Origin: an uncultured Gammaproteobacteria bacterium
Lineage (GTDB): Bacteria; Patescibacteriota; Patescibacteriia; Veblenbacterales; UBA10138
Direction of reading: 5' to 3'
DNA: 64,000 bases
Assembly: GCA_964453605.1 (NCBI GenBank)
Contig: CAYVOI010000001.1
Location: forward strand, 241,627 to 305,626
The position numbers were made by a program, and so were the translations under genes. Positions 3,450-20,478 of this stretch are shown here, piece after piece. Each line of letters starts with the position of its first letter. The stretch's first letter is position 1. A model generated the notes under the pieces. That model did no database searches. It was not told the DNA's origin and saw nothing but the letters and a program-made list of their open reading frames with translations.

Positions 3450-5121
3450 AAACAACAAAATCAATTACATCTCCTACACCCGCAAAAGTACAGAGGGCGA
3501 GGATAGACAAACACTCTCGCTCGAAGACCAGAAGCGAGAGCTTGATGAGCTAATTAGCAAAGAGGGTCTGAAGGTCTCTGAAAGTTTTACTGGGAAAGTG
3601 AAAGGTGAAAGCCAGTCCGCACACAAGAGAGGGCGACCGATTTTCAATCACATAATGCAACAGATTGAGAGAGGAAAAGCGAACGGTCTGATTGTGTACC
3701 ACCCAAACCGTATTGCCCGTAATGCTTTCGATGGCGGTCTTGTCATCACGTTGATGGACGAAGGTAAGTTGCTCGAAATTAAAACTCCCACCAAAACATA
3801 CGTGAACAACCCAGACGACAAGTTTTGGTTACAGTTGGAGTTCGGTATGGCAAAGAAGTCATCTGATGATAACGGTGTCGCAGTGACCAGAGGCATTAAG
3901 ACAAAATTGATGGCTGGATGGTATCCTTCACGCGCTCCACTTGGTTACCTCAACACAAAGAATTACGAAGAGAAGGGTAAGAACTTCATTCTCAAAGATA
4001 CAGAGCGCTACGATTCGGTTCGTCGAATGTGGGACTTGATGCTTACGGGAAACTATACTCCTCCGCAGATTGTTCAAATTGCTAACAACGAGTGGAAGTT
4101 CAAAACACGTCCTACCAAACGTCACCCAGGACTCAAGCCACTTTCGCGCAGCAACATCTACAAAATCTTTACCAATCCGTTCTACTACGGTTACTTTGAA
4201 TACGGCAAGGAAGGTTCAAAGCAGTTATACAAAGGCAGTCACGAGCCTATGATTACAGAAAAGGAGTACGACATCGTACAGAAGTTACTCGGACGACTGG
4301 GCAGACCACGCGCCCAAAAACATCGCTTTGCTTTCACAGGATTGATGAGATGCGGTAACTGCGGCGCAATGATTACCGCCGAGGAAAAGGTAAAACATCA
4401 GAAGAATGGCAACATCCATCACTACGTGTATTATCGCTGCACAAAACAGAAGGATGAAAAATGCCCAGAGAAGGCAATCGAGTTGAAAGAATTGAGTTCG
4501 CAGATTGATGAAGCTATTGGAAAGTTCACTATATCCGAGCGCTTTAAGAATTGGGCAATCAAAGACTTGCACCAGATACGCCAAACTGAAGCCCAAACAC
4601 ACGAAGCTGCTCTCAAGAGCACTGAACGCGACCACTTGCGCATTACGCAGCAGTTACACAATCTTTTGCTCAAGCATTCTTCACCAGAGAATAGCGAAGG
4701 ACAGTTGATGTCGGATGCAGAATATCAGGATGTGCGCACGAGCTTGCTAAAGCAGAAATCTGCGCTTGAGTCACGAATCACTACTCAAAACAAGGAAATT
4801 GACGAGTGGGTTGCATTAAGCGAACGCACCTTCAATTTTGCCCGCTACGCACGAACTTGGTTTGCCCAGGGCGATATGAACACCAAGAGAGCGATATTCG
4901 CCTGCATAGGTTCGCACCTCATAGTCAAAGACCGAAAAATAGCAGTTACCCTTCGTCCAGTGTTCCAAACAATCTTTGAAGCATTGCCAAAAACACAACC
5001 TGCAATTTCCGAGATTAGAACCTCTCTTGAACTTGCACTTTCAGCTTCAAATAACGAAAAAGACGCCCTTTCGGGGCAGTCTATTTCTACTTGGCGGAGA
5101 GGATGGGATTCGAACCCATGA
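3433..5121 (+). CDS. Large serine recombinase (resolvase/integrase family)
   Basis: MKTDIKNNKINYISYTRKSTEGEDRQTLSLEDQKRELDEL... shows an N-terminal serine-recombinase catalytic domain (Y-x-R-x-S-T, IVYHPNRIARN). A recombinase domain follows, then Cys clusters (CGNCGAM...YYRC) and a coiled-coil C-terminus. Its 3' end overlaps the 3' end of tRNA-Ser(GCT). Confidence 0.85.
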   Translation: MKTDIKNNKINYISYTRKSTEGEDRQTLSLEDQKRELDELISKEGLKVSESFTGKVKGESQSAHKRGRPIFNHIMQQIERGKANGLIVYHPNRIARNAFDGGLVITLMDEGKLLEIKTPTKTYVNNPDDKFWLQLEFGMAKKSSDDNGVAVTRGIKTKLMAGWYPSRAPLGYLNTKNYEEKGKNFILKDTERYDSVRRMWDLMLTGNYTPPQIVQIANNEWKFKTRPTKRHPGLKPLSRSNIYKIFTNPFYYGYFEYGKEGSKQLYKGSHEPMITEKEYDIVQKLLGRLGRPRAQKHRFAFTGLMRCGNCGAMITAEEKVKHQKNGNIHHYVYYRCTKQKDEKCPEKAIELKELSSQIDEAIGKFTISERFKNWAIKDLHQIRQTEAQTHEAALKSTERDHLRITQQLHNLLLKHSSPENSEGQLMSDAEYQDVRTSLLKQKSALESRITTQNKEIDEWVALSERTFNFARYARTWFAQGDMNTKRAIFACIGSHLIVKDRKIAVTLRPVFQTIFEALPKTQPAISEIRTSLELALSASNNEKDALSGQSISTWRRGWDSNP

Positions 5122-5183
5122 GGCGCTGTTTAGGCGCCACGGTTTAGCAAACCGTTGCCTTAAGCCACTCGGCCACCTCTCCC
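5092..5183 (-). tRNA. tRNA-Ser (anticodon GCT)
   Basis: Minus-strand sequence GGAGAGGTGGCCGAGTGGCTTAAGGCAACGGTTTGCTAAACCGTGGCGCCTAAACAGCGCCTCATGGGTTCGAATCCCATCCTCTCCGCCA. Perfect 7-bp acceptor stem, long variable arm, GTTCGAATC T-loop, encoded CCA. Confidence 0.85.
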
Positions 5184-5608: not shown

Positions 5609-5700
5609 TGGCGGAGGGCACAGGATTCGAACCTGTGTGAGGCTCTCGCCCCAACTGGTTTTCAAGACCAGCGCCTTAAGCCACTCAGCGACCTCTCCAC
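5609..5700 (-). tRNA. tRNA-Ser-like (anticodon TGA) with a mismatched acceptor stem; possible pseudo-tRNA
   Basis: Minus strand GGAGAGGTCGCTGAGTGGCTTAAGGCGCTGGTCTTGAAAACCAGTTGGGGCGAGAGCCTCACACAGGTTCGAATCCTGTGCCCTCCGCCA. The D-arm is nearly identical to tRNA-Ser(GCT), but the acceptor 5' GGAGAGG versus 3' GCCCTCC gives two mismatches. Confidence 0.55.
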
Positions 5701-6016: not shown

Positions 6017-6043
6017 GGGGTTTATGGTGGCGGAGGGGGGTGG

Positions 6044-6073
6044 CCCTGAAGTAGAGCATAGCTCACTTCAGGG
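6044..6073 (+). repeat. Conserved hairpin repeat CCCTGAAGT-N12-ACTTCAGGG, copy 1
   Basis: Perfect 9-bp inverted repeat. The same stem recurs at 12085..12114 and, with one mismatch, at 43816..43847. Confidence 0.5.
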
Positions 6074-6126
6074 TAAAATTCGAACCTTACTGCGGTGTAA
6101 TAGTTTTTCGCGACCCCGTACGAGAG

Positions 6127-6213
6127 CGGTGGGGGCGAGATTCGAACTCGCGGTCCGTTTGAGCGGACTCCGGTTTTCAAGACCGGTGCACTAAACCACT
6201 ATGCGACCCCACC
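6127..6213 (-). tRNA. tRNA-Ser (anticodon TGA), class II
   Basis: Minus strand GGTGGGGTCGCATAGTGGTTTAGTGCACCGGTCTTGAAAACCGGAGTCCGCTCAAACGGACCGCGAGTTCGAATCTCGCCCCCACCG. Perfect acceptor stem, 3-bp D-stem, long variable arm, G73 discriminator. Confidence 0.7.
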
Positions 6214-6396
6214 GCTCTTCTACGGGGCAAGCTGTCCGATTAAACCACTCTCGCACCCCTCCCTAGCCAAAAAATTGCTACCCCAGTATAGCCACCAAGG
6301 TCAGGAGTGTCAACGTTACCACTTAGGCATTTATTGACGGTAAACAGAAGATGCTTTACCCTTCATACTACAAAGCCAATACAAAAGGAGTCCGCC

Positions 6397-7363: not shown

Positions 7364-9880
7364 TTACTCCAAGGTTATCGTACCGTCCTTAGCCGCTTTG
7401 ATAGTTACCTTGGTTGGCGTTTTTTGGAGGTGGAGCAGTTTGTGGGTTATGGGGTCTTCCACCTGTTCCTGCAGGAAGCGGCGGATGCCGCGAGCACCCT
7501 CGTCTGGCGAAAACGTTTTTTTGGCAATGGCCGCTGCCACCCCACGCCCTAAAGTCACTTCGAGCTTCAGTTTTTGTGCTTTGAGGCGCTGGTTCAAGTC
7601 TGCCACCTGCAGCTTCACAATGTCTTCCAGGTTAGCCTCAGAGAGGGGGTTAAAGATGACTATGCCGTCCAAGCGGTTCAAAAACTCCGGACGGAAGAAC
7701 TTTTTAACCTCGCCCATTAAACGCTCCTTGAGTTCAGCAAAGCTCTCTTGGAATTCGGTTTTACCCTCGCCCCCAGCGCTAAAGCCGAGGCGGGCTTGGT
7801 TTCTGAGCTCTTGCAGCCCGAGGTTAGAGGTCATGAGGATGAGCGAGTTTTTGAAGTTCACCTGCTTCCCAGCCGCGTCGGTTAGGTGCCCATCTTCCAA
7901 AATTTGTAGGAGCAGGTTGAACACATCGGGGTGGGCTTTTTCCAGTTCATCAAACAGCACCACTGAGGCGGGTTTGCGCTTGATGAGGTCAGTGAGCTTG
8001 TTAGAGTCTTTGTAGCCTACGTAGCCAGCGGGCGCGCCGATGAGTTTAGAAATGTTGAACCCTTCGGCAAACTCTGACATGTCGAGGCGTATGAGCGCCG
8101 AGGGGTCACCAAACACCGTCTCGGCTACTGCTTTAGCGAGTTCCGTTTTACCAACGCCTGAAGGCCCTAGGAAAATGAATGAGCCAAGCGGTCGGTTGGG
8201 GTTGCCAAAGCCGAGGCGGCCACGGCGTATGGCCTTGGCCACGTGCGTAATAGCTTCAGCTTGCCCCACCACACGCGTGCTCAAAACGCTCTCCAGCTTT
8301 TGCAGCCGCTCGCGCTCCGGCGCCATGAGCTCGGTCACCGGCACGCCAGTAACCTGGGCTACCACTTGCGCAATTTGCTCTGGGCCAACCGTGCCTAAAC
8401 GTTGCTCCCCGCCGTGGCCCTTGCGCAGGCGCTCCAAATCAGTTTTGACTTTGGCCTCCTCTTCTTTGTAGGCGTTAGCCAGCGGGAAGTTCTCTTCTTT
8501 AATAGCGAGCTCTTTAGCCTCCGTGAGCTGCCGTAAGCGTTCACTGAGCCCACGTTCGGCCGTCAGTTGTTCGCTTGGTGCTTGTGAGGTTTTAAGGTGT
8601 GAGGCCGCTTCGTCCAGCAGGTCTATGGCCTTGTCAGGCAAGAACTTTTCTGGCACGTAGCGCTCGGACAGTCGAACCGCTGCCTCAATCGCCTCGTCGG
8701 TTATGGTAACGTGGTGGAAGTTTTCGTAGCTCGCGCGAACACCTTTTAGTACTTCCATGGTTTCTTCGGGTGTAGGTTCAGCCACCTGCACCACCTGGAA
8801 CCTGCGCTCCAGCGCGGCGTCGGATTCAATGGTCTTTTTGTACTCTTCCTGCGTGGTGGCACCAATGCAGCGGATGAGCCCTTTTGCCAAGGCTGGTTTA
8901 AGTAAGTTAGCCAGATCAAGCGTACCCGGCGCGCCGCCAGCGCCCACAATGGTGTGCACCTCGTCTATAAACAGAATAATTTCTGGGTGAGCCTTGAGTT
9001 CTTCCAGCAGTTGTTTGAGGCGGCCCTCAAACTCACCGCGGTACATGGTGCCTGCCACCATGAGCCCCAGGTCCAGAGCGTAGATTTTTTTGTCGCGGAG
9101 AAAATCAGGCACCGCGCCCTCAGCTATGCGGCGCGCCAACCCTTCCACAATGGCGGTCTTGCCCACCCCGGGGTCGCCGAGGAGCAGGGGATTGTTCTTG
9201 GTGCGCCGTGCCAGGATGTTGATGACCCTGGTGATCTCGCGTTCTCGGCCCACCACCGGGTCCAGCTTAGCGCGTGATTCTTTGGAGGTGAGGTCGGTAG
9301 CAAAAAAGTTTAAAGCTGGCGTGTCACCATCGTCCGCGCGTTCACCTTTGGCCTCGGCCACGGCAAAAGCCTCGGTGAGGTCAGGGAACTTTGAGGTTGA
9401 GCGGAGGACCGAGGTGACGTTAGACTTTAAACTCTTGAGCTCCACGTCGAGCTTGCCCCAGAGTTCTTTCACCTCTGCCTCGTCACTCACCGTGAGCGCG
9501 TAGAGCAGGTGCTCGGTGCCAATGTAGTGGTGCTGGTACTTCCAGGCGGTGAGCACGGAGCGCTCGATAATCTTTTTAACCAAAGGCGACAGGTTGCCAC
9601 CCAAAACTTCCGCCAGCTCGGGGTTACTGTTTACCACTTCAGCCACTTTTTCGACCGTGCGGATAGACTGTGGTGTGGTGCCGAGCTTTTCATGAAGTTT
9701 TAAGGTAGACAGCCCGTGCTTGTCTAGAATCTCTGCTGCCAGGCTGCCGCGTTCGGCGGCCAGCGCGAGCACCAGGTCGGTAACCTCAAGCTCGCTCCGC
9801 CCAGCGGAGAGCGCGCCTCCGCGGGCGCGAGCCAAGATTTTCTGGTAGTGGCTGGTGAATTTTGAGAGTATATCGCTCAT
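7364..9880 (-). CDS. clpC: ATP-dependent Clp protease ATP-binding subunit (ClpC-like AAA+ chaperone)
   Basis: 838 aa. Clp N-domain repeats, two Walker A sites ([18 protein letters not shown]), short middle domain, and an LGF ClpP-docking tripeptide. Confidence 0.85.
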
Positions 9881-16823: not shown

Positions 16824-17174
16824 ATGGGTAAAGAGTATAGCCGAGAAATGTATGAGCAGGCCGAGGGCAAAGTTCATAGCCTGGAAGAGAGGGGCCAGCA
16901 GCTAGCTGCGGAAATTCAGCGGGATATAGAGGAACATGGCGTACGAGGCTACTTGAAGCATGCCATGAACTTAAACATTCTGCGAACTAATCTTGAAGTT
17001 GGGCAAATCTACCAAGCGGAGGCCAAACGTGCTCAAGTTCTTGAAGCGGGGGAGGCTGAAGCGGTAGAGCTTAATAATGAGCACGCCCGGCTCCAGCAGA
17101 AGGTAGCTGAGGCTCTAGGCCAGTTGGCACAGTTTGAAAAAGATAAGCTGGGCATGCACGTCGAAGAGACATGA
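16824..17174 (+). CDS. Hypothetical coiled-coil protein
   Basis: 116 aa, Glu/Ala/Gln-rich heptad-like sequence. Followed by a strong terminator. Confidence 0.4.
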   Translation: MGKEYSREMYEQAEGKVHSLEERGQQLAAEIQRDIEEHGVRGYLKHAMNLNILRTNLEVGQIYQAEAKRAQVLEAGEAEAVELNNEHARLQQKVAEALGQLAQFEKDKLGMHVEET

Positions 17175-17197
17175 TGGTTTAAACTATGGTGTGGTTC

Positions 17198-17228
17198 AAC
17201 GTGCCCCTGCGGGGGCACGTTTTGGTTT
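17198..17228 (+). terminator. Rho-independent terminator
   Basis: AACGTGCCCC-tgcg-GGGGCACGTT followed by TTGGTTT. Confidence 0.55.
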
Positions 17229-17605
17229 ACCGTTTGACAGCCCGAGTAGTTGTGCTACTATACCCCAATACCTTATAGGTTTATGGCTAACTTCAGCCAC
17301 AAGTCGGTCCGCACTACCCAGGTTGTTTGCTTTAGCCTGGTGCTTTGCCTGTGCCTGGAGCGGCTTGGAACTATGAGGTAGATTTCGAAAGCAAAACCCT
17401 CACGCAAATTCCTGAGCCGCCCCTTACCGGAGCGGCTCACGTGTTGTAACAGCGCTTTTTAACAACTAAATCATCAACTCAATCAGGCTACTGTTAGAGA
17501 AAGGAGGAGCACGAAGGGCACTACATGCCCAAACGAGCCAACCCAGCTATTCACTACATCACCACCAACGCTGAGTGGCAGAGCCACTCAAGAAAGGAGC
17601 AGTAC

Positions 17606-17881
17606 ATGCCACACCCGAACGGAGAGCTTGTGACCCAAGCGATGCCAGAGCGCACGTTAGCAGCTCCGCGCCAGCTATCAGCCCCCGGCTACACCAGTCC
17701 CCATGAAATTGGTCGCCACTGTGTTGTGAATATTGGCGGCACCGACCAAGTAGTGTGCTTCTACATGCACTGTGCTGTAACCGGAACGGTTGATAACCTG
17801 AAAAACTTTCTTTTGCAGCCCTGCCAGCGCCGTCGCGGCGACGAAGAAACGCGTGACAGCTGGGGAAACGTTCGACCTTGA
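17606..17881 (+). CDS. Hypothetical small protein
   Basis: 91 aa; SD AAAGGAG 6 nt upstream of ATG 17606. Confidence 0.4.
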   Translation: MPHPNGELVTQAMPERTLAAPRQLSAPGYTSPHEIGRHCVVNIGGTDQVVCFYMHCAVTGTVDNLKNFLLQPCQRRRGDEETRDSWGNVRP

Positions 17882-17892
17882 AAGGAGCCACC

Positions 17893-18084
17893 ATGAAAGC
17901 GGATAAGCACTGTGCCAGTTGTAACTTTCCTATCGACGACGCGGTTGAAACCTGTGCCTACTGCGGCCACCCGCAAGGCACCCGCCCACTCGACGTGGAG
18001 TGTCCTGACATTCCACACGAACCCAACCCGCCACCGCGGCCGCCCCACGAGAATGAGTTGCCCCGCTACGTTGGCTGCATCTGA
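17893..18084 (+). CDS. Small zinc-ribbon protein
   Basis: 63 aa MKADKHCASCNFPIDDAVETCAYCGHPQGT... (CxxC...CxxC) with a Pro-rich tail. SD AAAGGAG 5 nt upstream. Confidence 0.45.
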   Translation: MKADKHCASCNFPIDDAVETCAYCGHPQGTRPLDVECPDIPHEPNPPPRPPHENELPRYVGCI

Positions 18085-18132
18085 CCCGCTTCACCCCCCT
18101 ACTGTTCAACCCGAACCTAAAAGGAGTAAACA

Positions 18133-18414
18133 ATGACCACGTGCATAAGAAAGATATGCCGCACCTGCAAGCGTTCACCAACCAATCTTGAGACCAACTA
18201 CTGCCAACACTGCGAGCGGTACACCGGTTTTGTACCCGATAGGCGCGCTGAAGAGCTCTACGAAGTTTGCACCCAGTGCGCCCACCCGCGTTTTTCACGA
18301 GGTAACGGCCAGTGTACAGCAGCCCACCCGCTCGCCACCGAGTTTAGGTGGATGAACGTCTTAGAGCACCGCTCACTCCGCCAGCAGCTCGCTGAACCCG
18401 AAGTCACCGAATAG
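18133..18414 (+). CDS. Small zinc-ribbon protein, two CxxC pairs
   Basis: 93 aa with CRTC...CQHC and CTQC motifs. SD AAAAGGAG upstream. Confidence 0.45.
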   Translation: MTTCIRKICRTCKRSPTNLETNYCQHCERYTGFVPDRRAEELYEVCTQCAHPRFSRGNGQCTAAHPLATEFRWMNVLEHRSLRQQLAEPEVTE

Positions 18415-18469
18415 CCCAATCACCCACCACCAACCCGCGGGGTCTAGCTCCGCAGAAAGGAACTAGTAC

Positions 18470-18919
18470 ATGGAAAGCACCACCGCCCGGACGGCTGAGC
18501 TGTACCAGCTCTGGAAAGCATCATGCAATGCACTTCGGCAGTTGCGGGCCGACAAGCAGGTGCTCGCCAAGAAGCAGTGCGTGCTCAGCCAAGAGCTCAT
18601 TGCCCTTCGCTCGCGTAGCAAAGCAGAGCAGGAACTGCTCAGGGTTCGCACAGCCGAGCTCAGGCAGAGCATCGATAACCATACGGCCAGCTACCAGCAG
18701 CACATTCGTACCCACCGCCGGCTCTGCCGAACCATCGAAGCCACGCTCGGCTCGGGCACCATTGGCACCTGGGTTAGCACCCTACTCGTTCTCACCGCCC
18801 CGCAGCCTGAACCAGAGCCGTCGCCGGCTGAACAGCAAATGAAGCCAATTGTACTTTCGAAAAGTCCGGATTCTAACTACGGCCGCAGCGGCGGACTGTA
18901 CTGGGACGGCTACGCTTAA
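18470..18919 (+). CDS. Hypothetical coiled-coil protein with one hydrophobic segment
   Basis: 149 aa; SD GAAAGGAA upstream. Terminator GGTTTCCAC-AAC-GTGGAAGCC plus T-run at about 18944-18985. Confidence 0.45.
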   Translation: MESTTARTAELYQLWKASCNALRQLRADKQVLAKKQCVLSQELIALRSRSKAEQELLRVRTAELRQSIDNHTASYQQHIRTHRRLCRTIEATLGSGTIGTWVSTLLVLTAPQPEPEPSPAEQQMKPIVLSKSPDSNYGRSGGLYWDGYA

Positions 18920-19203
18920 CACCAACCCATTATCACTCATTTTTTTAAAAAGGTTTCCACAACGTGGAAGCCTTTTATTTTCTTGGTTCTTTTAAACTCC
19001 ACGGTTCATCAAACATTCATGCTTGTACTGAAGTGTTCGTTGGCTCAAGGTGAGGGCAAACAAAAAACGAATCTTTATTCAAAGAAAGGAGGAAAAACCA
19101 GCGAAAAAAGGGACAAAGTTTTGTCCCTTTTTATTTTTTCGCTAAGTTCCAGCTTGTGTATAAAAAAATGGCTAACGTTAGCCACCAGATTCATTTTTCG
19201 CGA

Positions 19204-19475
19204 TTGACAAAACACTTCACTTGCGCTACACTGGTAGTAGCTCTTCCACATGCTTGATACCAATTGAGCTCTATACATATATGCCATGGGGTTCGCATAG
19301 CTAACGCCTCCGGGCGACAGCTGAGAACGCCACGCGGCAGTGTGGTAGGGGAGTAACGGGACGTTTGATGGGAGTGAGGAACACGCTCTCATCCGCACCC
19401 AGCTTCCCTAAGCCCAGCCCAACTGGAGTCTAGGAACTCCAATTCGTATCAAGCCCTGGTAGGGCTTTTAATTTT
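19204..19475 (+). ncRNA. Candidate small ncRNA unit: consensus promoter to intrinsic terminator, no ORF
   Basis: TTGACA 19204-19209, N17, TACACT 19227-19232. Terminator AGCCCT-GGT-AGGGCT plus TTTTAATTTT at 19452-19475. About 235 nt between them with no ORF longer than 10 codons. Confidence 0.3.
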
Positions 19476-19525
19476 GCCCAAATATTGCTACAGTGCCAGA
19501 GCTCAATACCCGTATTGAGCACTCT

Positions 19526-19653
19526 GGTCGGGGTGTGGTGTACCCCGAAGAATCCGCCAGTCGGCGGATTTACGGGGCAGGCATGCACCCGAGGGGGCGA
19601 GAGCGAGCTGGCGTAGCTCTCGCGGGCAGTTACATTGAAAAAGTATCCATGGT
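19526..19653 (+). pseudogene. Degenerate 5' fragment of tRNA-Pro with hairpin insertions
   Basis: Starts with the same 19 nt as the tRNA-Pro 5' end (GGTCGGGGTGTGGTGTACC). Retains ATGCACCC but has a nested hairpin inserted in the D-loop and no T-arm or acceptor 3' half. Confidence 0.4.
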
Positions 19654-19728
19654 CGGGGTGTGGTGTACCGGTAACATGCACCCTTGGGGTGGGTGTGACA
19701 GCGGGTTCGACTCCCGCCACCCCGACCA
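19654..19728 (+). tRNA. tRNA-Pro (anticodon GGG)
   Basis: CGGGGTGTGGTGTACCGGTAACATGCACCCTTGGGGTGGGTGTGACAGCGGGTTCGACTCCCGCCACCCCGACCA. 7-bp acceptor, CACCC/GGGTG anticodon stem with loop TTGGGGT, TTCGACT T-loop, encoded CCA. Confidence 0.8.
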
Positions 19729-19762
19729 TGGATATTTGGAAGACAGCGGGCATTGCCCAGGA

Positions 19763-19800
19763 GGGTGTGACGGTGGGTTCGACTCCCACTACCCCGACTA
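19763..19800 (+). repeat. Partial direct repeat of the tRNA-Pro 3' half (att-like remnant)
   Basis: GGGTGTGACGGTGGGTTCGACTCCCACTACCCCGACTA versus the tRNA GGGTGTGACAGCGGGTTCGACTCCCGCCACCCCGACCA. A third acceptor-end-like copy, CCTCCACCCCGACCA, sits at 19942-19956. Confidence 0.5.
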
Positions 19801-20025
19801 AGCACATTCGTTTAGGAGACAGAGGGGCGTAAAGCCCTCGCGTAAAGCGACGTGGTCGCCACGCGACTTTACGTCGGGGGCCACGCCCTCTAGGAGGTTC
19901 GATTTACCCCGTAGGGATACGAAGTATCTCCTGCGGGGCTCCCTCCACCCCGACCAGAGATCATAGATATGATGAAACCCGACTCGCATCGCAAGCCGGG
20001 TTTCGTTGTTTGAAGTTAGTGCTTT

Positions 20026-20478
20026 TTAGCTCGGTACCAGAGCCAGGCCTTGGGAGTGACAGATGCTGAAGGCGGGGTGTTTCTCGCCAATTTCACGTAA
20101 GACCTCTTCGGTCTGTTTTCGCCAACGCGAGTCGCAGGGTTTAGCGTTGGTAACTTTAAAGCATTCAAGCGCTTCGGTCTTAGTTTTGAAAAGTGCGATG
20201 ATGGCAAATGTACCATCTCCCCAGTAGCGAGTGTTTACCTTTTCAATGTTGCGTTCGATGCCAGCAAGTGGGCTGGTCATCGCGTATTTTTCTGGGAAGA
20301 ATACAATAAGCTGTTTGCAAATCGCTACCATTGTGCCACCCTGCAGCTGGTACCCCACAGGAGGAGAATTGCTGTCTCCGTGAACGGCGATTTTCTTGAC
20401 CGAAGGGTACCCATTCTTGCCCTGAGCTTTGGCATGGTAAACAGAAGTTTTTGTTACCGCAAAGAATTCTTTCAACAT
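20026..20478 (-). CDS. Hypothetical protein
   Basis: 150-aa ORF with reasonable codon usage; no recognisable motif. Confidence 0.4.
   Translation of the reverse strand: MLKEFFAVTKTSVYHAKAQGKNGYPSVKKIAVHGDSNSPPVGYQLQGGTMVAICKQLIVFFPEKYAMTSPLAGIERNIEKVNTRYWGDGTFAIIALFKTKTEALECFKVTNAKPCDSRWRKQTEEVLREIGEKHPAFSICHSQGLALVPS

Follow-up and report, generated by a model that had tools for sequence, protein, structure and literature searches.

A tRNA-Pro gene nested within the split halves of an older tRNA-Pro gene in a member of the Patescibacteria

The 64,000-nucleotide (nt) stretch of DNA analyzed here (contig CAYVOI010000001.1, positions 241,627 to 305,626; hereafter the window) contains a transfer RNA (tRNA) locus, at about 19496-20011 on its + strand, in which one intact tRNA-Pro(GGG) gene (19654-19728) is enclosed by the remains of an older tRNA-Pro gene, viz. 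a 5' half (19529-19590) upstream and two 3' pieces (19763-19797 and 19893-19956) downstream. The loci that match it best are from Patescibacteria (candidate phyla radiation). An initial annotation, made from the nucleotide sequence alone, had described this region as an intact tRNA-Pro within an array of its own fragments and palindromes, and every element that it listed was found within a few bases. The pieces are nested around the intact gene and not merely serial, because the CTCTGG in the 5' flank of the upstream copy is complementary to the CCAGAG in the 3' flank of the last copy. The explanation that we favor, which we regard as probable though far from assured, is that of a nested gene replacement, in which a promoter-less, hairpin-flanked tRNA cassette was inserted into its resident cognate gene, at the anticodon loop.

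The nested geometry is evident from the sequences that flank the different copies. The outer flank CTCTGG-T-CGGGGTG is complementary to CACCCCG-A-CCAGAG, which closes the last 3' piece, and the outer leader and acceptor stem together form 14 of 14 Watson-Crick pairs. The intact tRNA has complementary flanks of its own (ATCCATGG/CCATGGAT), unlike the outer ones, which provide 13 uninterrupted pairs past its acceptor stem. Both helices, the outer one (CTCTGGTCGGGGTG/CACCCCGACCAGAG) and the inner one (ATCCATGGTCGGGGTG/CACCCCGACCATGGAT), were detected as inverted repeats and are present in the minimum-free-energy fold. From 5' to 3', the locus consists of a leader, the outer 5' half (acceptor strand, D stem, D-loop hairpin and CACCC), GAGGGGG, a hairpin (Hx) and GGGCA; these are followed by a linker, the inner leader, the tRNA-Pro, the inner trailer, a linker, TGCCC, AGGA and a piece (M) that starts from GGGTG; and lastly by a long hairpin, a second T arm (whose T loop also holds a hairpin), an acceptor strand, A, CCA, a trailer and a putative terminator (Table 1). 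The 523-nt stretch folds much better than its dinucleotide shuffles (z = -10.1, with none of 100 shuffles as good). As L001, assembled independently from the same organism, has the same sequence throughout the locus (100% identity), the arrangement is not an assembly artefact.

Table 1. Features of the tRNA-Pro and tRNA-Ser nests and their positions in the window (bp, base pair)
Feature	Position	Strand	Basis or remark
Putative promoter element of the extended -10 type, TGcTACAGT, serving the whole unit	19486-19494	+	Reading of the sequence; no call by the consensus scan
5' hairpin P0, CCAGAGCTCAATAC CC GTATTGAGCaCTCTGG; 3' arm overlaps outer leader	19496-19527	+	Repeat search, fold
Outer leader CTCTGGT; pairs with outer discriminator and trailer (19953-19959)	19522-19528	+	Inverted repeat I1; minimum-free-energy fold
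Outer 5' half of older tRNA-Pro: acceptor 5' strand, D stem, anticodon-stem strand CACCC (19586-19590)	19529-19590	+	
Junction J1, GAGGGGG, in place of the anticodon loop	19591-19597	+	Reads G(A/C)GGGGG in all relatives; alignment columns invariant
Hairpin Hx: 7-bp stem CGAGAGC/GCTCTCG, 11-nt loop GAGCTGGCGTA	19598-19622	+	
Helix Hc, 5' strand GGGCA, base of the rod bearing the inner tRNA; partner TGCCC at 19754-19758	19624-19628	+	
Inner leader ATCCATGGT; pairs with inner discriminator, CCA and trailer	19645-19653	+	Inverted repeat I2
Intact tRNA-Pro(GGG), CCA encoded; functional gene	19654-19728	+	ARAGORN; Rfam RF00005
Inner trailer strand CCATGGAT; overlaps CCA	19726-19733	+	Leader/trailer helix
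Hc 3' strand TGCCC, then junction AGGA (CGGA in relatives)	19754-19762	+	
3' piece M: GGGTG, variable loop, T arm GTGGG/CCCAC, acceptor TACCCCG, A73; no CCA	19763-19797	+	Repeat D1
Long imperfect hairpin at the variable-region/T-stem position of the outer copy	19821-19891	+	Folds
Outer 3' piece GGAGGTTCGATT...CCTCCACCCCGACCA: T stem GGAGG/CCTCC, T loop TTCGATT with hairpin at 19907-19938, acceptor, A73, CCA	19893-19956	+	
Outer trailer CCAGAG; pairs with CTCTGG at 19522-19527	19954-19959	+	Repeat search, fold
Intrinsic-terminator-like hairpin and T run, putative end of the unit	19974-20011	+	Inverted repeat I6, fold; not listed by the consensus scan
Nested tRNA-Ser unit (promoter at 6285-6313)	6028-6313	-	
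Outer 5' piece, tRNA-Ser(TGA)-like: acceptor GGAGGGG, D arm, anticodon stem, ends ...CTT	6229-6262	-	
Inner leader (15 nt)	6214-6228	-	
Intact tRNA-Ser(TGA), acceptor GGTGGGG	6126-6213	-	
Inner trailer, complementary to the leader	6112-6127	-	
Outer 3' piece: restarts with GAAAAACT, hairpin in T loop, CCCCTCC-G-CCA (G73 and CCA)	6028-6093	-	

The inner gene, on which ARAGORN and Rfam agree with the initial annotation, scores 55.3 bits against RF00005 (threshold 29) and has the cloverleaf with conserved D and T loops expected of a tRNA, and its sequence is identical or nearly so in relatives. The decayed 5' copy with an expanded D loop described in the initial annotation is also present: the first 17 nt of the outer 5' half are identical to those of the intact tRNA, the 20-nt sequence TGGTCGGGGTGTGGTGTACC, which comprises the tRNA 5' end and its flank (19650-19669), occurs exactly 125 nt upstream (19525-19544), and a 35-nt hairpin (19543-19577) lies inside the outer D loop. 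Downstream, the copy of the tRNA 3' half extends over 19760-19808 (82% identity over 49 nt, 72 nt downstream), and it is the sole further match in the window to the 23-nt tRNA 3' end with up to three mismatches, where shuffled sequences predict none. In its T stem, piece M carries a compensatory change from C-G to T-A in comparison to the intact tRNA. The third acceptor end, CCTCCACCCCGACCA, is found at 19942-19956, and the long imperfect palindrome and the palindrome at the 5' end are likewise present. GC-rich hairpins are inserted in the outer D loop, T loop and variable region. The outer copy itself does not have the makings of a tRNA, as its D loop is a hairpin, its T loop is interrupted, and GAGGGGG, Hx and the rod take the place of its anticodon loop; it was called by neither ARAGORN nor Rfam, even at E <= 10. 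At this locus, the inner tRNA was the only Rfam match, both at gathering score and at E <= 10, apart from weak matches to permuted tmRNA, mascRNA and others that are attributable to chance. The locus is GC-rich, as stated earlier (61% vs. 52.5% for the window), but the claim that all reading frames are open on both strands does not hold, since each frame has 1-9 stop codons. A coding function for the locus was rejected, the open reading frames (ORFs) of 100-125 amino acids that overlap the tRNA on both strands being spurious.

To place this locus in context, related loci were collected by scanning a genome collection for the tRNA 5' end, which gave 55 loci, and from contigs that carry homologues of an ADK-like protein; among the latter, L200, L201, L204-L206, L208, and L209 had no tRNA-Pro. 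Metagenomes were scanned for the junction motif, where two of the nine matches were real and the others were mostly chance matches in coding sequences. The same layout was observed in at least five other Patescibacteria lineages, and a nested or fragment-flanked tRNA-Pro is present in L011, L012, L018, L024, L055, L057, and L061. L057 is from a close relative (EF-G 92% identical, same gene order), L055 is a nested locus from a Veblenbacteria genome, and L012, from a Kerfeldbacteria genome, has two 5' layers (A and B). Outer 5' halves with a D-loop hairpin, homologous to that of the window, are found in L011 and in both layers of L012. In L061, where the contig ends shortly before the tRNA and the 5' side is therefore missing, three 3' copies are present, and the T-loop hairpin is homologous to that of the window, from which it differs by one compensatory pair (ATAC/GTAT vs. 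ATGC/GCAT). L018 represents an independent case around a tRNA-Pro(TGG), and in L024 the nested locus is decayed and its outer acceptor is lost. The outer CACCC and the GGGTG with which it pairs are 181-194 nt apart in each of the six complete loci. The flanks of the long hairpin (GAGGGGCGTAAAGCCCTCG and GGGGCCACGCCCTCTA) are identical in L057, from which the T-arm/acceptor part of piece M and the following spacer (about 50 nt) are missing. The 5' hairpin P0, which the initial annotation had called operator-like, is not conserved in L057, L011 or L055. Clear promoters of the form TTGATT-N17-TAnnAT precede the outer 5' halves in the relatives, and terminators follow the outer 3' halves. At gathering score, Rfam gave no match beyond tRNA, and none to Intron_gpI, in 12 related loci.

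Other, close relatives carry a plain tRNA (L199, L211, L056, L043, L047, L202, and L207), which in L199 (for Pro, in comparison to L011) and in L211 (for Ser, in comparison to the window) occupies exactly the place of the outer halves; the former is informative about the origin of these halves. L199 and L011 are about 99% identical in the non-coding RNA upstream of the tRNA-Pro, and the outer leader and the outer trailer in L011 are the orthologues of the leader (AACATATTAGTGA) and trailer (CCACTAGTATGTT) of the plain tRNA-Pro in L199. Based upon this orthology, the outer halves in L011 represent the resident gene, which is split by about 310 nt.

A second nest of the same kind, formed around a tRNA-Ser(TGA), is present on the - strand of the window at 6028-6313 (Table 1). 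The leader/trailer helix of the inner gene has five uninterrupted pairs. Since the outer pieces end in ...CTT and restart with GAAAAACT, the break is located at position 34/35. In the related locus L211, whose ComF is 77% identical, a plain tRNA-Ser(TGA) is found behind the same promoter and at the same distance from it, and this tRNA resembles the outer pieces in the window and not the inner gene. As the inner tRNA-Ser differs from that of L211 and the outer pieces resemble it, the direction of the event was the insertion of a foreign tRNA-Ser into a resident gene. The comparison of these sequences thus indicates that a foreign tRNA-Ser with its own stem was inserted at 34/35 and would now be expressed from the resident promoter. 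In this region the window has three tRNA-Ser genes (GCT, TGA, and TGA; 5092-5182, 5609-5698, and 6126-6213, all on the - strand) that are about 516 nt apart with short ORFs between them, and L211 has two tRNA-Ser genes there. Near the latter, at L211 2717-4144, are genes for a reverse transcriptase and bAvd that resemble a diversity-generating retroelement.

Another conceivable origin for these arrangements would be that the tRNA gene was triplicated locally in tandem, after which copy 1 decayed in its 3' part and copy 3 in its 5' part. The direct repeats and their close spacing (125 and 72 nt) would be expected from such an event, the outer trailer of L018 resembles its inner trailer, and the layers A and B of L012 look like tandem duplicates. 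However, the outer and inner flanks differ from each other and each pair is self-complementary (in L055, TTTAATACACTGG/CCAGTGTATTAAA for the outer and TCAACAGATTGG/CCAATCTGTTGA for the inner flanks), the outer flanks are orthologous to the flanks of the plain genes in L199 and L211, and the inner and outer acceptors at the Ser locus (GGTGGGG vs. GGAGGGG) differ, the inner gene there being foreign. We therefore consider triplication to be a highly improbable origin, one that is largely refuted by these observations and is plausible only for the extra layers or copies. For L012, the fact that both of its Hx copies have a stem specific to that genome (TAATCC/GGATTA) fits a duplication of layers within the genome.

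The initial annotation had interpreted the fragments as the classic scars of site-specific integration. In its fuller form, this explanation holds that elements with tyrosine integrases repeatedly entered and left the 3' part of tRNA-Pro, that their cargo was deleted and that serial attR-type copies were left behind. The two 3' pieces are indeed direct repeats of the 3' part of the tRNA located downstream of it, some copies in L017 and L061 begin with the anticodon loop (TTGGGGT GGGTG...), as would be the case for att sites located there, and exact copies of tRNA 3' ends are seen 140-190 nt downstream of tRNA-Gly, -Pro, and -Arg in other Patescibacteria loci. This explanation, however, does not account for the 5' halves found upstream, for the nested order with its complementary flanks or for an inner tRNA that is complete and has a stem of its own; the spacers are only 34 and 95 nt long and no integrase or cargo is present within about 6 kilobases (kb); the unit length of about 190 nt is conserved in distant lineages; and the same architecture at tRNA-Ser would require a second integrase specificity. 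Viral collections were scanned four times with patterns for tRNA-Pro, the junction, and tRNA-Ser, and all matches were due to chance or came from unrelated phage tRNA arrays. Serial integration of this type is thus quite unlikely. What remains of the earlier interpretation is that the fragments are remnants of hits on a recurrent target gene, relatives with plain genes being known, whereas they are not classic 3'-end att scars in view of the 5' half, the nesting and the break in the anticodon loop.

Several parts of the Pro locus show covariation. In hairpin Hx, six of the seven stem pairs change on both sides over seven copies with all cells remaining paired, a result that none of 500 shuffles reached, and the pairing was destroyed when the register was slid. 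Six of the seven Hx pairs differ even between the window and the close relative L057. Hx follows an invariant CCCG-N-GGGGG and has an 11-nt loop with the consensus GARCNNGCGTA; a covariance model of Hx matches only nested Pro loci. The Hx loop of the window is the same as that of a second Hx-like hairpin in L024, which suggests that modules may have been shuffled between copies. The possibility that Hx is a dispersed repeat was rejected, the motif being limited to a single locus within the window. Helix Hc is perfect in six of six loci, where it occurs in three variants (GGGCG/CGCCC, GGGCA/TGCCC in the window, and GGGTG/CACCC in L011), and it is present in all four minimum-free-energy folds. 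The inner leader and trailer differ in sequence in each lineage, yet they form 8-16 uninterrupted pairs past the acceptor stem, G.U pairs included. The outer closing helices, which are fully paired in the window, have 18 of 19 pairs in L057, 21 of 21 in L011 and 20 of 21 in L055.

Among about 140 tRNAs of the Patescibacteria loci, leader/trailer helices of at least 8 bp were found only at tRNA-Pro genes, whether nested or not. The tRNA-Pro genes of the window and of L004, L010, L017, L018, L024, L025, L055, L056, L057, L061, and L202 have such helices (8-16 bp, perfectly paired and extending to the CCA). Leader/trailer pairing as a general trait of tRNAs here was rejected, as among the tRNAs of this genome it is seen only for the Pro gene and the nested Ser gene.

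The comparison of the window with L057 provides evidence of constraint on parts of the locus outside the tRNA. At fourfold degenerate sites of fusA the two are 42% identical, i.e., essentially saturated, and the linkers of the locus are unalignable, but the blocks ATGCACCCGAGGGGGC, GCGGGC, GCCCnGGAGGGTGT, and GACAGAGGGGCGTAAAGCCCTCG are identical in both. The identity of these non-tRNA blocks in spite of saturated neutral sites implies that parts of the scaffold are either constrained or exchanged.

These results also bear upon the possibility that the locus encodes one large functional RNA, i.e., that a tRNA-like scaffold of about 430 nt (outer helix, G-rich strand, Hx, hairpins, and CCA) is itself under selection. 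Such an RNA could serve as a processing or folding platform for the tRNA-Pro within it, or it could be a stable two-piece tRNA-like RNA that persists once the inner tRNA has been excised and binds a protein that recognizes tRNAs, e.g., ProRS, RNase P or the CCA-adding enzyme. The covarying Hx stem with its conserved loop, the perfect Hc with two compensatory variants, the block identities in L057 and the fold stability are all in accordance with this proposal, as are the G.U pairs in the leader/trailer helices, which fit selection at the RNA level on the + strand, the retention of 20 of 21 outer pairs in L055 in spite of its decayed D-arm region, and the retention of A73 or G73 together with CCA at the outer 3' ends of both Pro and Ser loci. 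The initial annotation had named the same arrangement in relatives, with covariation of a single large RNA, as the observation that would speak against scars. This is what we find in part, as Hx, Hc, and the leader/trailer helices covary and blocks outside the tRNA are kept in L057 in spite of saturated neutral sites, and the locus is hence not just a set of decaying scars. On the other hand, the distribution is patchy, with plain tRNAs in the close relatives listed above, L024 is without an outer acceptor, and the number and order of the 3' pieces differ even between the window and L057. The outer D loop is without G18/G19, the T stems are imperfect or interrupted, and no detector calls the outer copy; the outer acceptor, anticodon and T stems are invariant and thus provide no support by covariation; and no Rfam family matches. 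The patchiness, the plain relatives, the decayed L024 and the variable copy number speak against an essential RNA, and on balance we regard the functional-scaffold explanation as rather unlikely. It is compatible with nested gene replacement if the remnants were co-opted.

Under nested gene replacement, a resident tRNA-Pro with its own promoter, terminator and complementary leader and trailer would have been interrupted in its anticodon loop by a compact unit that has neither a promoter nor a protein, i.e., a hairpin rod tipped by a complete tRNA-Pro(GGG) with a leader/trailer stem. This inserted unit is about 190 nt long and a complete tRNA is its sole cargo. The intact inner tRNA would then supply the function, with the split older halves remaining on either side and their acceptor and flank sequences still able to pair. 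Transcription probably starts at the resident promoter and covers the whole unit (about 19500-20010), giving a single, highly structured precursor of about 500 nt, from which the inner tRNA could be cut out by ordinary tRNA-processing enzymes (RNase P and a 3' processing nuclease), perhaps with the aid of a nuclease specific for double strands that attacks the long leader/trailer helix. The 3' piece at 19763-19797 and the GC-rich loop hairpins were probably added later, and in some lineages layers may have been added or the locus may have reverted to a plain tRNA; the extra layers and 3' pieces are likely to stem from unequal recombination between the repeated segments of the tRNA. Entry of the unit could have been effected by a trans-acting recombinase using the symmetric anticodon stem, which the Hc repeat mimics, by repair of a nuclease cut from a filled allele, or by homologous replacement following the uptake of DNA, in which the invariant tRNA halves would act as homology arms.

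A number of observations weigh against this explanation or limit it. No insertion enzyme was identified, and no target-site duplication is present at the Pro or Ser junctions. The Pro junctions are unclean (CACCC-GAGGGGG... and ...AGGA-GGGTG, where the original loop is TTGGGGT), which implies that the event is old or was remodelled. The inner and outer tRNA-Pro sequences are the same and would fit either a gain in L011 or a loss in L199. The covariation counts are from only 6-7 nested Pro loci. Furthermore, Hx, Hc, J1, and GACAGAGGGGCGTAAAGCCCTCG have been conserved between the window and L057 against the fourfold-site identity of only 42%, and in L055 an outer flank helix of 13 bp has stayed perfect next to a D-arm region that is badly decayed; the kept blocks and this helix imply selection on the scaffold, which a view of the outer halves as pure remnants does not explain.

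A bolder version of nested gene replacement can be put forward tentatively, although we doubt that it is correct as it stands. Here the unit would be a selfish, intron-like tRNA cassette that homes into the cognate anticodon loop, borrows the promoter of the resident gene and is released by host enzymes; repeated homing would give rise to the layers, and the outer halves were possibly co-opted as a processing scaffold or a two-piece tRNA-like RNA. If true, this would constitute a bacterial, ribozyme-free route to split and intron-containing tRNA genes, in which the host is never without tRNA function.

The genes that flank the Pro locus include those for ComEC, an ADK-like kinase, a Nudix protein, L28, an M50 peptidase, S12, S7, and EF-G. 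Five small co-directional ORFs (68-149 amino acids) are located upstream at 16824-18919 and one of 150 amino acids lies downstream at 20026-20478; these ORFs have only weak zinc-ribbon matches in Pfam and PHROGs. Searches of seven small or unknown neighboring ORFs against these two databases revealed no integrase, transposase or phage family within about 6 kb, and exact-sequence look-up of the p150 and L28 proteins gave no match. The suggestion that the gene cluster at 16.8-18.9 kb is the residue of an integrated element thus finds no backing, as it bears no mobile-element signature. The interval between the ADK/Nudix genes and the non-coding RNA described below varies in content in relatives (L199, L202, and L057). 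In L057, a T-box leader (99 bits) is present at 9343-9667 on the - strand.

Directly upstream of the tRNA-Pro unit, at 19236-19476 (+), is a conserved structured non-coding RNA of about 235 nt, with a promoter-like TTGACA-17-TACACT at 19204-19232 and a terminator at 19451-19467. This RNA adjoins tRNA-Pro in at least 10 Patescibacteria lineages, and of the 50 pairs predicted for it by RNAalifold, 24 show compensatory changes. Its ends pair (GCTTGATAC/GTATCAAGC), the 3' strand overlapping the terminator, and it had no Rfam match even at E <= 10. A motif, GAGCTC(A/T)A, is found at three sites, viz. in the 5' hairpin (19499-19507), in the 5' region of the 235-nt RNA (about 19266-19276, ATTGAGCTCTA) and at about 6480-6490 of L011, where it is part of a hairpin inserted at the junction of the outer T stem and acceptor; its recurrence may reflect either coincidence or a common binding site.

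Another type of structure was observed downstream of other tRNA genes in L002, L030, L032 (three tRNAs), L033, L035, and L041. Here a tRNA-Gly, -Pro or -Arg is followed, 140-190 nt downstream, by an exact copy of at least its last 12 nt. These 3' modules comprise a hairpin (often after GAGCGAG), then a segment whose sequence is antisense to both the T loop and the T-stem 3' strand (e.g., GGAGAATCGAA), and 75-100 nt of structured sequence; the copied tRNA 3' end, in many cases with CCA, closes the module. Covariation is seen between the antisense segment and the distal copy, and the motif GAGCGAG...GCGTAG resembles the Hx loop of the nested Pro loci. No Rfam family matched these modules, and a multiple alignment of modules from other phyla was heterogeneous and yielded only the closing helix. 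Together with the Pro leader/trailer helices and the 235-nt RNA, they suggest that the stable-RNA loci of these minimal genomes contain more structure that has not been described. With regard to annotation, tRNA finders report only the inner gene of the Pro nest and miss the 350 nt that flank it, which are conserved, structured, and probably transcribed as RNA and are missed by the RNA family libraries.

Of the known systems with which these loci can be compared, those nearest in kind are the integrative elements that leave fragments of tRNA genes in the form of attL/attR direct repeats, where the integrase crossover occurs in the anticodon loop or T loop. A study by Williams from 2002 is said to offer an example of such att repeats of islands and prophages in tRNA genes. 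The nests resemble them in having a tRNA gene as the target, partial copies flanking a functional gene, and a break in the anticodon stem-loop, whose symmetric stem is favored by recombinases and is mimicked by Hc (GGGCG...CGCCC). They differ in that the gene is split and unrestored, with 5' and 3' halves nested, that the unit is only about 190 nt with the replacement tRNA as its only cargo, that no integrase is nearby, and that the insert uses the resident promoter. In att-type insertion only the 3' side is duplicated and the element regenerates the tRNA, but here a 5' half is found upstream and the inner tRNA is complete. The terminal inverted repeats characteristic of miniature elements are present (Hc and the leader/trailer helix at Pro; GCCCCGTAGAAGAGC and GCTCTCGTACGGGG at Ser), whereas neither target-site duplications at the junctions nor dispersed copies in the 64-kb window were found.

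Parallels exist for some features in RNAs of other kinds. The leader/trailer stems of rRNA operons, which are RNase III substrates, are also long helices (15-23 bp) that flank a stable RNA, covary and contain G.U pairs, but those described here flank a tRNA, extend its acceptor stem, pair with CCA and are confined to tRNA-Pro in our sample. Transfer-messenger RNA (tmRNA), including its two-piece form, is similarly a large structured RNA whose ends form an acceptor and T-arm domain with CCA. The identification of the locus as a tmRNA was rejected, however, as it has C1-G72 and G3-C70 and not G3:U70, no tag frame or pseudoknots were detected, ARAGORN called none, and the permuted tmRNA family RF04321 scored 17.1 bits against a threshold of 47.

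In terms of the interruption itself, the nests are also close to the disrupted tRNA genes of archaea and can be compared with introns within tRNAs. Archaeal tRNA genes are known with introns at canonical and non-canonical positions and in split and permuted forms (PMC4033280; PMC4390854), and in the tRNA-Thr of Caldiarchaeum a 5' tRNA fragment is located upstream of a recombinase-bearing insertion beside a second tRNA-Thr (PMC3293823). Common to these and the present loci are the interruption of the anticodon loop, insertions in the D and T loops, an older fragment beside a newer functional copy, differences in the interruption between related genomes, and split halves that are held together by acceptor and flank complementarity. 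In the present case, however, the host is bacterial, the "intron" is itself a tRNA, the insert contains no recombinase and the outer gene is without sign of splicing or function. Inspected by eye, the junction forms a 5-bp stem and a 2x3 internal loop (GA/GGA) followed by Hx and Hc, without two 3-nt bulges 4 bp apart, no formal search for a bulge-helix-bulge having been made. Group I introns have been reported in anticodon loops of Patescibacteria tRNAs, at position 35/36 (PMC13011429), and they share with the nests the phylum, the anticodon-loop target (34/35 at Ser here), expression of a non-coding insert from the host promoter, and patchiness; the differences are that the exons here are degenerate and that release would need tRNA-processing enzymes and not self-splicing. 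The possibility that the insert is a group I intron was rejected, as no match to Intron_gpI was obtained at E <= 10 in 19200-20200 and the insert (about 120-190 nt) is too short.

We found no account in the literature of any bacterial tRNA gene that lies inside another's anticodon loop. Disrupted tRNA genes are regarded as an archaeal speciality and they are central to the debates on the evolution of tRNA genes and their targeting by mobile elements. A bacterium with filled and empty alleles at two tRNA genes, in which the DNA that interrupts the gene amounts to little more than a second tRNA and its long leader/trailer stem, provides a tractable system for examining how tRNA genes break and are replaced without loss of function. 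The pattern, which recurs in relatives and at a tRNA-Ser gene, points to a hitherto undescribed way for bacterial tRNA genes to be broken and replaced.

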